In this document: positions 2,083-19,652 of the stretch, piece after piece
Position numbering within the stretch: the first letter of the stretch is position 1
Layout of the letters: every line of letters begins with the position of its first letter
Assembly (NCBI GenBank): GCA_028288945.1
Contig: JAQGHH010000601.1
Span: forward strand, 1 to 24,710
Direction: 5' to 3'
Length of the DNA stretch: 24,710 nt
From: Phycisphaerales bacterium
GTDB lineage: Bacteria; Planctomycetota; Phycisphaerae; Tepidisphaerales; Tepidisphaeraceae
The notes under the pieces: model-generated
What the model was told of the DNA's origin: nothing
The model's input: the letters and a program-made list of their open reading frames with translations, nothing else
Database searches by the model: none
Program-made: the position numbers and the translations under genes

Positions 2083-2415
2083 CAGCCCCGGAGGGGCGTA
2101 AGACCTTAGCCCACGACGCGAGTCGTGGGTGTTCATCGAGAAGGGTTTACAGCCCCGGAGGGGCGTAAGAAGCGCAGGACGAAGTGTGCGTTGTTCGCAC
2201 GGATCGGACCCGCGGCTTCGGGTGTTTGACCCGGGGCGTCGAAATGGACGACACGGCCGGGCTCCAACCACTCGTACGATCGATACACCTTCTGATCGCC
2301 GACAACCGCTTGGTTATCCGATGCTTCTTACGGCCCTCCGGGGCTGGTTGTATCTACTACATTTGTCACCCACGGCTTACGCCGTGGGCTAAGGTCTTTC
2401 GCCCCCCCGGGGCTG
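2083..2415. repeat. Nested REP-like inverted repeats: outer pair 2083-2130/2368-2415, inner pair 2150-2173/2323-2346
   Basis: The CAGCCCCGGAGGGGCGTAAGA unit occurs 4 times (2 forward, 2 reverse). Outer copies also carry a CCCACG(A/G)-N6-(T/C)CGTGGG hairpin. Located between convergent genes. Confidence 0.85.
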
Positions 2416-3123: not shown

Positions 3124-3714
3124 TCAGTTCCCCGCCGCGCCGGCACCCGCGCCGCCGCCTCGGCGTCCCCCCTGGCCACCGCGGCCGCCGCCGAACTGCG
3201 CTGCGGCGTCCTGACGCGCCTTGGCGATCTTCGCCTGCTCGTCGGTGAGCCGCTGCACTTGCTCGGTGGTGAGCACGGCCTGGATCTGCTTGGCCGCTTC
3301 GTCGGCGTTCGGGGCCGAGGCGAAGAGCTGTGTGCGGGCCGTGTTCAGTTCCTGCCGCTTGTCCTGGGCATCCTGCCCGGCGTTGCGCAGCTCGGCGAAC
3401 TGGTCCTGGATTTTCTTGATGTCGGCGGCGTGCTCGGTTCGCCACTGGTCGGATTGCTTCTTGAAGTCATCGCGGATGCTCTGGATTTTCGTTTTCTGGT
3501 CGGGGGCCAGGGCAAAATCCGGCGCGAGATTCAGCTCGCCCAGTGCCGACACCAGCTCATTGAGCGCGTTGCGCCCGAATCCCCGGTTGCCGCGGGGCGG
3601 CTGTTGCTGAGCGGGGGCCGGTGTGGGTGCGGGATCGTCCGCCCCGAAGCTCCAAACGGGCATGGCGAGCGCAAAAGCAGCCGCGGAAACGAGTAACGTC
3701 TTGCGAAGTTTCAT
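3124..3714 (-). CDS. Secreted helical protein, Spy/CpxP (LTXXQ-motif)-like
   Basis: Signal peptide MKLRKTLLVSAAAFALAMPVWSFGA; LAPDQKTKI and LTTEQ motifs; Gly/Arg-rich tail; SD AAGGAG upstream of ATG 3714. Confidence 0.75.
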   Translation of the reverse strand: MKLRKTLLVSAAAFALAMPVWSFGADDPAPTPAPAQQQPPRGNRGFGRNALNELVSALGELNLAPDFALAPDQKTKIQSIRDDFKKQSDQWRTEHAADIKKIQDQFAELRNAGQDAQDKRQELNTARTQLFASAPNADEAAKQIQAVLTTEQVQRLTDEQAKIAKARQDAAAQFGGGRGGQGGRRGGGAGAGAAGN

Positions 3715-3902
3715 AGCCAATCGCTCCTTCACCAGCCGGGCGTCCGCCGGGCGTAGGGTGAGATGTTGGGCGGTCGCAAGCCATCGGCCTTTAGTCCCAC
3801 CCCCGGGCGGGACACCCGCCCTGACATGCCGGTGCGATCACCTCTGGATGCTTAGCACCCCGGCCCCGCGGGAATATTCCGGGAAAAGTGCGGAAAGAAA
3901 AA

Positions 3903-7724: not shown

Positions 7725-8037
7725 CGGCATCTCCTTCCCGTTCACGCCCGCGGCTCGGCAAAATCAACGACCATCACCGCGCCGCGGGTTTCCCCCTTCG
7801 ATATGAGGCGGCCGCGCAAACGTTTCCGCCGACCGTGAGATTCTACCCGCCAATGCTGCTGCCATGGACGGGGAAATTCACTGACGTTGAGCGATTGCGC
7901 ACGGGGACGCCGCTGGAGTCGCCGAGGTCTCCCAGCAGCAGGCAGTTTGCGGCGCGTTTTCTTTTCGCTGGCGCGAAACGCGCCCCGCAAGCGGGGCGGC
8001 TAAACGGATGTGGCCGGTCCCGCTCATCTGCGAGGAC

Positions 8038-13185: not shown

Positions 13186-13220
13186 GAAACGAAACAACCC
13201 CCGATGATTTCGGGGGTTGT
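13186..13220 (-). terminator. Terminator downstream of the tRNA-Phe 3' fragment
   Basis: 11-bp stem ACAACCCCCGA (13194-13204) / TCGGGGGTTGT (13210-13220), followed on the minus strand by TTCGTTT. Confidence 0.75.
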
Positions 13221-13228
13221 CTTCCAGA

Positions 13229-13274
13229 TGGGCAGAGCCGGGATCGAACCGGCGACACATGGATTTTCAGTCCA
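13229..13274 (-). pseudogene. tRNA-Phe(GAA) 3' half = att site (displaced tRNA fragment) of an integrated element
   Basis: Minus strand: TGGA-CTGAAAA-TCCAT-GTGTC-GCCGG-TTCGATC-CCGGC-TCTGCCC-A (anticodon arm, T-arm, acceptor 3' strand, discriminator). No D-arm or 5' acceptor strand upstream. Confidence 0.9.
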
Positions 13275-13961: not shown

Positions 13962-15206
13962 TCAGTTTGCCTCGGGCGGTTCGTCGTCGCCGACAGGGGG
14001 GAAGTGAAAGCACAGAACCGCCAACATTACCCGGCGCGTATTGTCGTTTGGCAGATGAAATTCAAAGTCGAACCATCCGGGGTTCGGATTACCCCGTGGG
14101 GCGACGTGTGCGGCATGGTCCTTTGTCTTGTCGCGTACCTCGTCTAAGACCGGCTGAAGGTTTTTGCCCTTTACGAAACACAGAACCGCAGCTTTGGAGT
14201 CTCGCCATGTCAGATAGGAAAGTGCTTGATCGATGGTGGTGTGATATCCTTTCAATCCCTTCCAAAACTTACACTCCGCCACGAAGAGGGTCTTGCCGTC
14301 CTCCCGCACGAGGATATCGGTCTTTCCAACCCGGTTGAATGTCTCGCCGGTCACGCTTTGGAAATGCGGTGCCAACTGCATGATGAGCAGGTCGCGGAGG
14401 GCCTCCTCGCCCCTACCCGCGTAAATGCTCGGCATGCGTTCCATGCTCACGCCAAGGTCATGTAGCACCGTAAGTATTCCCCGGTAGGTTGCCTCGTCGA
14501 TTGTCGGCTCAGGTTTGTAGGCCGTCGATGGCGCTGAGGGTTTAACCACCAACGGCTTCGGCGTGATCGGTACGCTAAACGTCGCGGGGACATTGCCAGC
14601 CGGCCTTAACTTAACGCCCAAGGATTGGAGCGTATTCGTGCGGCGGAGTAGTTCCGCCCTCCTGCTCTTCACCTCTTGAGCTACCTGCTGCGGCAGCACG
14701 TTCTGATTAAACGCGTTAAGCTCGTTCGCGAGACTTTGTGCGTTGAACTGCATCTGCTCGATGCAGTTGTCGAGTTCTCGCTTTATTTCGACTGAATCGT
14801 CGCGGTAATTAGGAATCGTAAAGGTGATCGTCTCACCCTTCACCTCCACTTCCATGGTCCACATACGGCGGTGTCCCGGTGCGCACTTCAGCAAATCCCG
14901 CTCACCGACGAACGGGATGTAAAACGTGATAATTTGGCGCTTGATGGTCTGTCCGCGTTCAAACCCGCGGAAGTCGAAATCGCGCATCCGCTCAACCCGA
15001 ACTGATTCCTCGTGCTCCCCTGCGGCCATTTCGGCATAATCGAACACCAAGGGATCGACTCGGTACTTGGCAACCAGATAGTTGATGTATTCTGTTTCAT
15101 TTATGTTCAGCAGCTTGTTCTGATCCTCCGCTGACACCTCCCGCTTGATCTGCTGAAGCCGCGCGTTAACGAACTCTGATGCCTCGATTTCCGCAAAGAT
15201 ATTCAT
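13962..15206 (-). CDS. Protein with C-terminal PD-(D/E)XK restriction-endonuclease-like domain
   Basis: E..LRD...GETFNRVGKTDILVREDGKTLFVAECKFWKG (D...ExK catalytic pattern); N-terminal 250 aa of unknown fold with a coiled-coil-like stretch. Confidence 0.8.
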   Translation of the reverse strand: MNIFAEIEASEFVNARLQQIKREVSAEDQNKLLNINETEYINYLVAKYRVDPLVFDYAEMAAGEHEESVRVERMRDFDFRGFERGQTIKRQIITFYIPFVGERDLLKCAPGHRRMWTMEVEVKGETITFTIPNYRDDSVEIKRELDNCIEQMQFNAQSLANELNAFNQNVLPQQVAQEVKSRRAELLRRTNTLQSLGVKLRPAGNVPATFSVPITPKPLVVKPSAPSTAYKPEPTIDEATYRGILTVLHDLGVSMERMPSIYAGRGEEALRDLLIMQLAPHFQSVTGETFNRVGKTDILVREDGKTLFVAECKFWKGLKGYHTTIDQALSYLTWRDSKAAVLCFVKGKNLQPVLDEVRDKTKDHAAHVAPRGNPNPGWFDFEFHLPNDNTRRVMLAVLCFHFPPVGDDEPPEAN

Positions 15207-15631: not shown

Positions 15632-16016
15632 GTGTCGATCTTCGTTGCGATCATAGCTGCGCTCGTGCTCGTTCATACCGGGTGGGAGAACATCCCGACT
15701 TATGCGGAAGTGCAATACCCCAACAAAGCAGTGCTGCATCAGGGCGGATGGTTCTTCAACGAAGATTCTGAAACTGAGAGTCTGTGAGGGAGAGTGGTAT
15801 AACGAGTGGGGGGAGGAACTGGCGGTGCCGATCGAGGGGTCGTGGAACAATCACATGGTCATTCGCTTCGCTGAGCACGGCAAGGTGTTCCGGGTCAACA
15901 AAACAGATATGACTCGGACGGAACTTCGAGTCGTGAACGGTGAATGGTCGGCGCTGTGCTCTGACGGGGAATGGGCGTCAGTCTGGAGACATGATGACAT
16001 TGACGCCGGCTACTAA
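15632..16016 (+). pseudogene. Probable frameshifted small secreted/membrane-anchored protein (frames 15632..15787 and 15702..16016)
   Basis: GTG 15632 opens MSIFVAIIAALVLVHTGWENIPTYAEVQYPNKAVLHQGGWFF. Removing one A at 15758-15759 joins it to TKILKLRVCEGEWY...DAGY. Confidence 0.45.
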
Positions 16017-16028
16017 CCGATCGGCCGA

Positions 16029-16268
16029 TCACGACGACGACTTCTTCGGCGGCGGCGCTGGCGAGGACATCGGCCTGTTGATAGGAATTTGATTGGGAAC
16101 TTGACCGGCAGGCGCAGCGCTCAACGGGTTCGCCCCATTCTCACTTCGCCTTTCCGGTGGCGCATTTTCGCTCGCTTGTATCCAACGTACACCATTTGCG
16201 CTAAGCGCCGTTCTGCTTTCAGCGGCAGGCGGTGGCGCAGGGTCTTGTTTTGGATTTTCGTCTGCCAT
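16029..16268 (-). CDS. Pro-rich peptide P3 (79 aa), ends RPMSSPAPPPKKSSS
   Basis: SD AGGAG upstream of ATG; shares the C-terminal motif and PLSAA with the neighbouring peptides. Confidence 0.8.
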   Translation of the reverse strand: MADENPKQDPAPPPAAESRTALSANGVRWIQASENAPPERRSENGANPLSAAPAGQVPNQIPINRPMSSPAPPPKKSSS

Positions 16269-16310
16269 TCTGGAATCTCCTAACGAAGAGGTTCTTCCTT
16301 TTACGACATT

Positions 16311-16508
16311 TTACTTCTTCGGCGGCGGTGCAGGGGAAGTCATCGGCTTGGTTCCCGGCGATTGATTTGTCTGCGCAGCACTTAGAGGTTTGGCCATGTT
16401 CTGAACGCGGGTATCTGGATTTATACTCCCAACGACGTTCCCCGTCTGGCAGATGGTGTGCAGGGACTTCGACGAGCGCACCACCCGCTTTGTATTTTTA
16501 CTGGCCAT
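16311..16508 (-). CDS. Pro-rich peptide P2 (65 aa), ends GTKPMTSPAPPPKK
   Basis: SD GGGGAG upstream of ATG; motif conserved at the amino-acid level with synonymous codon differences. Confidence 0.8.
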   Translation of the reverse strand: MASKNTKRVVRSSKSLHTICQTGNVVGSINPDTRVQNMAKPLSAAQTNQSPGTKPMTSPAPPPKK

Positions 16509-16532
16509 GAAAGAAGGCTCCCCTGAATTAGC

Positions 16533-17465
16533 TCAACGCTTCTTTTTCCTACGGTTTTTTACTTTTTGGGGGGCGGGGCGGGCGATGCCATCGGCTTCGT
16601 TCCCGTTGTCGCCTGCGGTGCCTGCCCATTCGCCGACTTCTGGGCCACCATTCGCGTCGGCGCTGGCCCGTTGTTGCTTTCCGTCAGCGGGGGACAATTT
16701 GCCGTTTCCGTTCGCGGGGTCGATTGATTCGGTGGAGGGTTTGGCATTGGCTGCATCCTTGTTAAACAATTCGATTAGCGGCTTCTGATTTTTCTTGATC
16801 TCGTCCTCGGTGACGGTCACTTCCCCGGTCATGTTCACAAACTCAACCGATGAAACGTCCGATGCTGGAACAAGCATTTTGTAAACCTGAATGAGTCCAA
16901 CGGCCGTTCCATCATCCAGAATCCAAGCAGGATCATCGAGAATGAAATGGCCCTTGTCGCATTCATCCGGCCACTCTTCGGGCCATCCTCTAAGTCGCCT
17001 CTCGCCATCCAGGTGGAGAATCACATATCGGTCATACCGGTGAAAGGCCGTGTACCACTGGCTTGGTGAGGCCGTCCGCCTGCTGCACGACGCCCGTTGC
17101 ATCCATTTGAAAATGGCCGTCCGCTTATGGACATTTCGGCTAACGACGATGCCAACCAAGACAGCAACGATCAGGGACCACAGAAGCCCTGAATTCGATG
17201 TCCAAGGCCCGAGCGCCAAATAATGTGCGTCCCACCGGATGTGCTCCCCGATGAGGTACATGAACCATCGTATACTTACGACGATCCCCTGAATCACCAC
17301 CGTATAAATCAGCGCCTGCACCACCCGCTCGAAAGAATTGCCCTTCGGGTGGGCGGTAAGAGTATAGACCACCGCCGCAGTCAAGAATCCGGGCAGCAAA
17401 AAATAGAAGATCGGGATCGCCTCTTTGGGCAATAGTTCCGTTGCGTTTTCTGCAAGAATGAACAT
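16533..17465 (-). CDS. DUF6338-like membrane protein (310 aa): three N-terminal TM helices, a small beta-rich domain and a low-complexity tail
   Basis: FLLPGFL...FERVVQALIYT N-terminus and YVILHLDGERRLRGWPEEWP..GHF.L..P.W...V..IEF-type C-domain recalled as DUF6338. Start set at ATG 17465; the track extension to 17747 looks non-coding. Confidence 0.75.
   Translation of the reverse strand: MFILAENATELLPKEAIPIFYFLLPGFLTAAVVYTLTAHPKGNSFERVVQALIYTVVIQGIVVSIRWFMYLIGEHIRWDAHYLALGPWTSNSGLLWSLIVAVLVGIVVSRNVHKRTAIFKWMQRASCSRRTASPSQWYTAFHRYDRYVILHLDGERRLRGWPEEWPDECDKGHFILDDPAWILDDGTAVGLIQVYKMLVPASDVSSVEFVNMTGEVTVTEDEIKKNQKPLIELFNKDAANAKPSTESIDPANGNGKLSPADGKQQRASADANGGPEVGEWAGTAGDNGNEADGIARPAPQKVKNRRKKKR
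16559..16747 (-). CDS. Pro-rich peptide P1 (62 aa), ends GTKPMASPAPPPKK; overlaps the 3' end of the DUF6338-like gene in the +1 frame
   Basis: SD AAGGA 8 nt before ATG 16747 (alternative ATG 16756); same C-terminal motif followed immediately by TAA. Confidence 0.75.
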   Translation of the reverse strand: MPNPPPNQSTPRTETANCPPLTESNNGPAPTRMVAQKSANGQAPQATTGTKPMASPAPPPKK

Positions 17466-17509: not shown

Positions 17510-17539
17510 AGCTTAGCACCCGAATTGTCGCAGCGTCAA
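17510..17539 (-). promoter_or_regulatory. Sigma70-type promoter of the DUF6338/peptide operon
   Basis: Minus strand TTGACG, 18 bp, TAAGCT, with TG immediately upstream of the -10 (TGnTAAGCT). Confidence 0.5.
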
Positions 17540-19238: not shown

Positions 19239-19652
19239 ATGTTCTACCGCACGTCTACCCTTATCTCGCTAACGCTCTTGTGCTACCTGCTGAAGGTCGG
19301 CGTCTTTGGCGGCGGCTTTGACTATTGCAGCGGCACTAAAGAGAGGCCCAAAGGGTACAACATCCTCGTGCGGCTGGACACCACCGGGCTGTGGTTCTCG
19401 CGGTCCCGAACGCGGTATTTCTATATGACGCATAAAATTCCGTTGGGTTCGCTGATCGGCTTCGCGGCGGTCCTTCCGGCCGTGTGGCTTGTGCGACAAA
19501 CGCTGCCGGCCCGGCGTGAGGGGTTCTGTGCGAAATGCGGCTACGACCTGCGCGCCACGCCCGACCGTTGCCCGGAGTGCGGGGCGGTGCCGACGCACAT
19601 GCCTTGCCCACCTGTCCCTCGCGCGCACAATGCCCCGAGTGAAGAAGCCTAA
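19239..19652 (+). CDS. Membrane protein with C-terminal zinc ribbon (CAKCGYDLRATPDRCPECG)
   Basis: Two hydrophobic segments plus a CxxC...CPEC motif, a paralogous family typical of Phycisphaerae genomes. Confidence 0.8.
   Translation: MFYRTSTLISLTLLCYLLKVGVFGGGFDYCSGTKERPKGYNILVRLDTTGLWFSRSRTRYFYMTHKIPLGSLIGFAAVLPAVWLVRQTLPARREGFCAKCGYDLRATPDRCPECGAVPTHMPCPPVPRAHNAPSEEA

Follow-up and report, generated by a model that had tools for sequence, protein, structure and literature searches.

Proline-rich microprotein genes recur directly behind DUF6338 genes in about a dozen bacterial phyla and form a three-gene array in a Phycisphaerales contig

We analysed a 24,710-nucleotide (nt) stretch of DNA from a Phycisphaerales bacterium (contig JAQGHH010000601.1 of assembly GCA_028288945.1, a contig of a soil-metagenome metagenome-assembled genome, MAG), which is referred to below as the window. 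Its minus strand carries a gene for a protein of the DUF6338 family and three genes for proline-rich microproteins, called pepA, pepB, and pepC here. A survey of DUF6338 loci from genomes and metagenomes showed that small, basic, non-globular, proline-rich proteins make up a large, widespread, and almost unannotated family, whose genes stand directly behind DUF6338 genes. We conclude that pepA-C are almost certainly real genes and partners of the DUF6338 gene.

The DUF6338 gene (16533..17465, minus strand) encodes 310 amino acids (aa) from an ATG at 17465. Its product matches Pfam PF19865 with 56.4 bits against a gathering cut-off of 26.5 (E 3.9e-15; protein residues 20-213 on profile positions 12-203 of 205), in agreement with an initial annotation of the window that had called it DUF6338-like. 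Residues upstream of the ATG are similar to the N-terminus of a homologue, P0006, so that a GTG at 17519 on the same strand, which would yield 328 aa, is a possible alternative start. The gene is present in a single copy in the source genome. On the same strand, pepA (16559..16756) encodes 65 aa, or 62 aa from a second ATG at 16747 (isoelectric point, pI, 10.0); pepB (16311..16508) encodes 65 aa starting with MASK (pI 11.2); and pepC (16029..16268) encodes 79 aa starting with MADE (pI 8.3). The latter two are found as unnamed genes in public collections (P0002 and P0001, respectively). Each gene is preceded at normal spacing by a Shine-Dalgarno-like site, namely AAGGA for pepA (7 nt from its second ATG), GGGGAG at 16518-16523 for pepB, and AGGAGA at 16276-16281 for pepC; the gaps ahead of pepB and pepC are 50 and 42 nt. 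The initial annotation had described three same-strand open reading frames (ORFs) of 62-79 aa, with Shine-Dalgarno sites of their own and related endings, downstream of a membrane-protein gene. All of this was borne out except that pepA is not downstream: it lies inside the DUF6338 tail.

The three proteins end, in the order pepA, pepB, pepC, in GTKPMASPAPPPKK, GTKPMTSPAPPPKK, and INRPMSSPAPPPKKSSS, all of the form PMxSPAPPPKK. A C-terminal box, K/R-P-x-x-P-rich-K-K, was found in all three: as KPMASPAPPPKK at the end of pepA, as KPMTSPAPPPKK at the end of pepB, and as RPMSSPAPPPKK(SSS) in pepC, whose terminal sequence is RPMSSPAPPPKKSSS. A central N-G-x-P box is clear in pepA (NNGPAPT) and pepC (ENGANP) and weak in pepB. 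In pepC this box coincides with the second shared motif of the initial annotation; for pepA, NNGPAPT fits the family alignment better than the TANCPPLTES that had been chosen. The N-terminal box is degenerate in the window (PNPPPN near the N-terminus of pepA, MASK in pepB, and a second-class MADE...PAPPP in pepC). All three proteins are basic (pI 8.3-11.2) and hydrophilic, with a highest 19-residue hydropathy of at most 0.23, and no signal or membrane segment was seen in them by hydropathy or sequence. An AlphaFold2 model of pepC contained no secondary structure (predicted template-modelling score 0.18).

The last 14 codons of pepA and pepB differ at nine bases, which are distributed over codon positions 1, 2, and 3 as 1, 0, and 8; the proportions of synonymous (pS) and nonsynonymous (pN) differences are 0.73 and 0.03, respectively. 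For the pairs that include pepC, pS is 0.45-0.69 and pN is 0.16-0.18. The third-position bias of the pepA/pepB differences indicates that selection acts on the peptide. The initial annotation had reached the same view, selection on the peptide and not on a DNA repeat, from synonymous differences in the SPAPPPKK codons, and its codon readings hold except that pepA has CCC CCC AAA AAG, not CCC CCA AAA AAG. The pepA and pepB copies are also alike as DNA (76% identity over 66 nt). The likeness continues for 19 nt after the stop codon, which makes tandem duplication the probable origin of the array. The frame that corresponds to the DUF6338 tail has decayed in copy B, whose peptide frame is intact. 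An antisense reading, in which a plus-strand frame (FFGGGAGE.IG) shares the wobble positions of the peptide frame, was considered and rejected: its ORFs are short, their starts are inconsistent, and the position of the motif varies.

For the survey, 160 DUF6338 loci were fetched (80 from genomes, 80 from metagenomes) and everything around the gene was translated. A strict pattern (within the last 16 residues, a run of prolines followed by K and then by one of K/R/Q/D/N/E) was matched by 130 of the 4538 same-strand ORFs whose ends lie in the interval from 350 nt upstream to 2.5 kb downstream of the DUF6338 stop, and by 0 of the 21407 other ORFs in the same loci. By a broader criterion, applied to loci with enough flank, 115 of 122 were positive on the same strand, none was positive on the opposite strand, and six were positive upstream. 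Nearly all loci negative by the strict pattern still hold a proline-rich ORF with a variant ending. The hosts of positive loci belong to about a dozen phyla, including Planctomycetota, Chloroflexota, Acidobacteriota, Nitrospirota, Desulfobacterota, Armatimonadota, Cyanobacteriota, Myxococcota, Bacteroidota, and Pseudomonadota; in the last of these (Gamma-, Alpha-, and Betaproteobacteria) they include Vibrio cholerae ATCC 14035, Serratia, Pseudomonas, and Stenotrophomonas. Strict-positive loci hold one copy in 59 cases, two in 13, three in seven, four in two, five in two, and six in one, and multi-copy arrays are found mostly in Planctomycetota. Elsewhere, the conserved unit consists of DUF6338 and the peptides only. 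The partnership of the peptides with the DUF6338 gene that the initial annotation had supposed is therefore upheld, as is its expectation that small ORFs would recur downstream of such genes in varying number (1-6 copies). Its description of a candidate new system, understood as a one-off, is not: the cassette is widespread, and one instance has been published (see below).

Aligned family members share an N-terminal box, M-G/S-S/K-K-x-P/S-Q/N-P-P-P, a central box, G-x-N-G-x-P-P, and a C-terminal box, K/R-P-x-x-(P)n-K-K, at times with a few residues after it. A second paralogue class, to which pepC belongs, starts with MADE or MSDE. A profile built from the 130 peptides of foreign loci, with none from the window, was run on 633 window ORFs and placed pepA (E 3.7e-5), pepC (E 2.1e-4), and pepB (E 0.01) at the top, the next ORF having an E-value of 0.71. 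The nearest locus, L016 from a Phycisphaerae MAG, contains three copies that all end in PMSSPAPPPKK, the first of which overlaps the DUF6338 tail. Direct searches with the window peptides behaved differently. A profile of the three retrieved only pepB and pepC from 5.8 billion proteins; an exhaustive HMMER search of 1.84 billion representatives returned only pepB, pepC, and long repetitive proteins; and a six-frame search of 60 related genomes gave nothing significant. The family came into view only via DUF6338 loci. A wider profile (A5) gave ten weak, unnamed matches among the 5.8 billion proteins, a scale at which E-values are uninformative because the peptides are short and of low complexity.

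That the three ORFs are nothing but frames left open by chance in decaying tandem repeats of the 3' end of DUF6338 is a view we regard as next to negligible. The repeat shared by pepA and pepB does run beyond the stop, pepA does lie within another ORF, and proline-rich frames easily stay open in G+C-rich DNA. Against this, the copies differ at third positions of the peptide frame, and it is the tail frame of copy B, not its peptide frame, that decayed; all three starts have Shine-Dalgarno-like sites; and family members are present in 115 of 122 foreign loci, with none on the other strand.

One divergent locus is recorded here as a side observation. In L175 (396-626, minus strand; from relative G049), a divergent DUF6338 gene adjoins a tyrosine integrase. 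An overlapping ORF of 76 codons comes next; it has a GGVNAG-type central box, ends in QQKK, and contains few prolines. This ORF may belong to the partner family as a proline-poor variant.

In the literature searched, DUF6338 is mentioned only in one paper (PMC10433244, Anal Chem 2023). It describes 'operon 9' of Pseudomonas (Stutzerimonas) stutzeri ATCC 14405, in which the DUF6338 gene Pstu14405_12030 is followed on the same strand by the genes for SEP1, SEP5, and SEP2, proline-rich basic microproteins of 36-47 aa (PMC10433244). Digest-free mass spectrometry yielded 85, 114, and 44 spectra for the three, respectively, at 98-100% sequence coverage (PMC10433244). These spectra show that the homologues are made by translation, persist as stable peptides, and undergo no heavy processing; P. 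stutzeri is the only instance with translation evidence. The SEP sequences have the central motifs NGANPPAP or INVNPPAP and end in ...APPPPKK, ...PPPPPKR..., and ...PPPPPKKGG. The authors judged SEP1, SEP5, and SEP2 not to be conserved beyond P. stutzeri and possibly to be de novo genes (PMC10433244). The occurrence of family members in many phyla contradicts this view and shows, as far as sequence comparison goes, an old and widespread family.

The mass spectrometry also bears on whether the peptides are precursors of ribosomally synthesized and post-translationally modified peptides (RiPPs) or secreted signals, matured by enzymes encoded elsewhere. The initial annotation had likened them to RiPP precursors, and variable regions combined with conserved motifs do look like a precursor array. 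Yet the conserved unit has just two kinds of gene and contains no maturase, protease, or exporter, and none of these was found among the window ORFs scanned (the initial annotation had itself noted the missing maturase). Moreover, the conserved part is the C-terminus, not an N-terminal leader, and the P. stutzeri homologues were intact and unmodified. We therefore hold this explanation to be very improbable.

A different explanation takes the peptide product to be irrelevant. Ribosomes stall at proline runs when EF-P is inactive; the small ORFs could be translational sensors acting in cis, in which stalling tunes operon expression or the fate of the mRNA. Many family members have 7-10 consecutive prolines, and translational coupling is suggested by how often an ORF overlaps the DUF6338 stop. 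The subfamily in the window, however, has only three consecutive prolines (SPAPPPKK), and residues other than proline are conserved in all three boxes. The ORFs also lie downstream of the gene that they would control, occur in up to six copies in a row, and in P. stutzeri give abundant full-length products. We consider a sensor of this kind quite unlikely.

The genes for pepA and DUF6338 overlap. The C-terminal DUF6338 tail (16533..16760, minus strand; residues 236-310 and the stop) is predicted to be disordered, with a predicted local distance difference test score (pLDDT) below 50 at residues 261-293. The whole of pepA is read in the +1 frame within the part of the gene that encodes this open tail, and the pepA stop precedes that of DUF6338 by 26 nt. 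In other loci, 54 of the 57 distinct first peptides that overlap the DUF6338 3' end are likewise read in the +1 frame; the overlap extends from a few bases to 170 nt there, compared with 224 nt in the window. The window is thus a clear case of two-frame coding, with a complete microprotein gene inside the tail of its partner.

Several long-tailed DUF6338 homologues end in a QKV...KKKR-like sequence, as the window protein does. By sequence reasoning, QKV...KKKR is what P-K-K-TAA and a purine-rich spacer give when read one base earlier, and the tail motif DGSQ/HGKQ is the shadow, in the other frame, of the peptide start MGSKAPQ. The apparent conservation of the DUF6338 tail is therefore largely borrowed from the embedded peptide gene. 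For this reason, the shared basic sequence is no proof that the tail is itself under selection, and alignments or profiles of the DUF6338 C-terminus (motifs DGSQ/HGKQ and QKV/KEV) may partly describe the partner gene. A programmed frameshift that would fuse DUF6338 to pepA was also considered. The candidate site, CCCCCCAAAAAG, is not conserved in pepB, pepC, or relatives, and none of the ca. 120 DUF6338 homologues has the peptide box as an in-frame end. As the P. stutzeri peptides are in addition separate chains, the fusion was rejected.

The window DUF6338 protein aligns with 124 homologues. An alignment of 93 of them (A4) was used for conservation analysis and for an AlphaFold2 model, which has a mean pLDDT of 80. 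The model contains three transmembrane helices (residues 16-36, 44-75, and 90-113), with which hydropathy agrees, a short amphipathic helix, a helix at 220-240, and the disordered basic tail. From the positive charges that follow helix 3 in the sequence, the C-terminal domain should be cytoplasmic. This domain (residues 130-212; 16830..17078, minus strand) was assigned an Sm/LSm fold from Foldseek and VIA-align. It consists in the model of a helix (136-143) followed by five bent antiparallel strands (148-209), as Sm domains do. A Foldseek search of the PDB with residues 130-212 gave only Sm/LSm proteins as top matches (E 1.4e-5; template-modelling score by target 0.74-0.81). VIA-align, an independent all-against-all aligner, superposed the domain on archaeal SmAP1 (1loj_A) with Z 9.7 and a root-mean-square deviation of 2.4 A over 75 residues, and its top structural matches were all Sm/LSm/Hfq proteins. 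Swiss-Prot models also support the fold. The initial annotation had foreseen a small beta-rich cytoplasmic domain, and the Sm/LSm fold makes this specific. Overall, the prediction for DUF6338 is an inner-membrane protein in which three helices are joined to a cytoplasmic domain of Sm fold.

Two motifs of the window protein, TSYPSEW and RRLxGWPxEW, are near-invariant in alignments A3 and A4. Across the 93 sequences of A4, the near-invariant cluster comprises R156, R157, G160, W161, P162, E164, W165, P166, G172, H173, F174, and W181, and it maps to strand 2, loop 3, and strand 3 of the domain. In Sm rings, the beta2-loop3-beta3 region faces the ligand-binding pore; the model thus suggests that the conserved residues of DUF6338 are placed at the ligand-binding face of an Sm domain. 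Other searches were less informative: AlphaFold DB clusters that share the full DUF6338 architecture are all uncharacterised; searches for DUF6338 and the peptides in the PDB by sequence, in the ESM Atlas by features, and in a phage collection yielded nothing useful; and weak Pfam matches across the 93 homologues included no MscS or other channel family.

Multi-copy loci provide an indirect clue to what the peptides may recognise. In 24 of them, paralogues diverge upstream and keep a C-terminal box that is specific to the locus, such as PMSSPA in L016, VPLPPA in L028, VQPS in L020, and RPTS in L162 and L167. Within a locus, identity over the five residues that precede the final proline run is 52%, compared with 24% when locus labels are shuffled, and 0 of 5000 shuffles reached 52%. 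Proline-run length is locus-specific in the same loci, too. Within loci, the C-terminal box has a mean pS of 0.67 and a mean pN of 0.10; since synonymous sites are near saturation, the sameness of the box is maintained by selection and not by recent duplication or gene conversion. The simplest reason would be a single partner, encoded at the locus, to which all peptides of that locus must fit.

We propose that the peptides, which have no signal sequence or membrane segment and so should stay in the cytoplasm, dock there as extended polyproline ligands, chiefly via the C-terminal box, on the aromatic-rich patch of the Sm domain. The domain would probably form a ring, as Sm proteins do, and the activity of the membrane assembly would be governed by peptide binding. 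Where a locus encodes several peptides, these would be alternative or additive ligands of a single receptor, and the whole cassette would be mobile accessory DNA, plausibly with a part in conflict or defence. Taken as a composite (cytoplasmic polyproline ligands that bind the Sm domain, all within a mobile accessory cassette), this proposal seems to us equally likely to be right and to be wrong. Direct binding of the peptides to the Sm domain is plausible, with our judgement leaning slightly against it; a complex prediction for the Sm domain (residues 115-240, A4) and pepC (A5), which scored 0.00 and was run without controls, carries no weight either way. A fuller version can be formulated, in which multivalent polyproline ligands, matched to their locus, gate or arm a membrane-anchored Sm ring that serves, as a new class of mobile two-component membrane system, in phage defence, exclusion, or another inter-element conflict, the arrays diversifying the ligands and the conserved +1 overlap enforcing coupled expression. 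This version is a tentative suggestion that is more probably wrong.

Alternatively, the peptides could be the active agents. As proline-rich, cationic, antimicrobial-like molecules, they would target the ribosome or nucleic acid, either in the producing cell or once exported, and DUF6338 would be an exporter, an immunity protein, or a membrane partner that sequesters them. Their basic, proline-rich, and unstructured nature would suit this role, divergent peptide arrays beside one membrane protein resemble bacteriocin loci, and an antimicrobial role was raised by the authors for the P. stutzeri peptides (PMC10433244). On the other hand, the peptides lack a signal or leader, a transporter ATPase is missing from the two-gene unit, PRP repeats like those of known proline-rich antimicrobial peptides are absent from pepA-C, and the homologues were intact in cell extracts. 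A C-terminal box specific to the locus also fits a receptor that is equally locus-specific more easily than it fits the ribosome or another universal target. We consider the antimicrobial role unlikely.

Several points weigh against the proposal that the peptides are ligands of the DUF6338 Sm domain in a conflict system. Ring assembly is deduced from the fold of the domain. Sm domains usually bind RNA, and the conserved patch of DUF6338 could serve nucleic acid instead of peptide. Paralogues share descent, and part of the likeness of C-terminal boxes within a locus could be inherited. No model in PADLOC, PHROGs, or NCBIfam matches DUF6338 or the peptides. Finally, among sequencing reads, the locus was found only in the probable source DNA run and was absent from the two metatranscriptomes of the same study.

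The idea of a mobile cassette with a possible defence role draws on the genomic context. The G+C content is ca. 0.55 across 8.5-17.5 kb of the window, compared with 0.63-0.67 around it. Among 60 relatives, DUF6338 scores above the cut-off in one. It was found in 0 of four same-genus genomes (85-89% complete), and these four have no DNA match to the 13.3-19.5 kb stretch except short dispersed repeats. The next downstream gene on the same strand, ca. 800 nt beyond pepC (13962-15206, minus strand), encodes a 414-aa near end-to-end match (E 5e-127) to the PADLOC defence candidate PDC-S54; the protein has no Pfam, PHROGs, or NCBIfam match. A related cassette (L182) is present on plasmid PALBO2 of Paludisphaera borealis PX4 (NZ_CP019084.1), where an unannotated 49-codon proline-rich ORF (3698-3847, plus strand of L182) ending in PPPPPPKQS overlaps the 3' end of the DUF6338 gene for WP_076351848.1. 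The plasmid cassette is flanked by a pair of genes for an ATP-binding protein and an S8 peptidase and by a tyrosine recombinase (integrase). The tRNA-integrated island of the initial annotation did not hold up, as neither ARAGORN nor Rfam detected a tRNA gene in the window. That the cassette serves defence or exclusion is possible and, in our view, rather doubtful.

Other features of the window were recorded. A 104-aa ORF at 15702-16016 on the plus strand is convergent with pepC and ends 12 nt from the pepC stop; it is rich in Trp and Glu, with a repeated GEW, has only a weak PHROG match (E 0.007), and was called as a gene in a second assembly (L007). Elements of ca. 50-70 nt at 7947-8017, 13219-13274, and 19536-19592 occur in dozens of copies with 80-95% identity in the four same-genus genomes, and they look like dispersed repeats of the repetitive extragenic palindromic (REP) or miniature inverted-repeat transposable element (MITE) kind. 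Two of the three bracket the variable 13.3-19.5 kb stretch that holds the PDC-S54 gene and the DUF6338 cassette. Two Acido-Lenti-1 RNA motifs (RF01687, 52-53 bits) lie at 2084-2129 (minus strand) and 2369-2414 (plus strand), inverted and ca. 240 nt apart; motifs of this kind suggest an acidobacterial host.

The results connect microproteins to a membrane protein that spans bacterial phyla, well-studied genera included, and show that gene callers and annotation pipelines miss such genes, as in the case of the Paludisphaera plasmid copy, which is unannotated in RefSeq. If the peptides do bind the Sm domain, the cassette would be a bacterial example of signalling by polyproline ligands at the membrane, and it would be a candidate for a new conflict system.

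Compared with what is already known, the window DUF6338 protein is a member of its Pfam family by score, for which the Pfam entry gives no function, fold, or partner, and it differs in having an additional tail of ca. 75 residues that overlaps pepA. Residues 130-212 resemble Sm/LSm/Hfq proteins in having an N-terminal helix and then five bent strands; they differ in sequence, with only 9-20% identity, and in being fused to three membrane helices. Eukaryotic SmB has proline-rich basic tails of its own, which is a loose parallel only. The likeness to class II SH3 pairs was noted because PAPPPK in the peptides fits PxxPx(K/R) and the partner is a small beta-barrel with conserved Trp, Phe, and Pro; proline-recognition domains are rich in these residues. 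The DUF6338 domain, however, has an Sm fold and is not a canonical SH3 domain, a designed SH3-like barrel appearing only at rank 50 of the structural matches. Judged from the model, this comparison lowers the case that the two are an SH3 pair and leaves the case that they work like one. Since the Sm fold is related to SH3-like barrels, a proline-rich ligand stays a reasonable idea.

The closest known relatives of pepA-C are the P. stutzeri SEPs, which have the same architecture with central and C-terminal boxes (the SEP end having the form RPA...APPPPKK). The window peptides differ from them in being longer (62-79 aa), in their shorter proline run (SPAPPPKK), and in the embedding of the first one in the DUF6338 tail. 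Apidaecin, oncocin, and Bac7-type peptides, which are secreted animal peptides with PRP-type repeats, are like pepA-C in composition only, being short, cationic, proline-rich, and unstructured. In contrast to them, the window peptides are bacterial and leaderless, have other boxes, and are tied to a membrane Sm-like protein.

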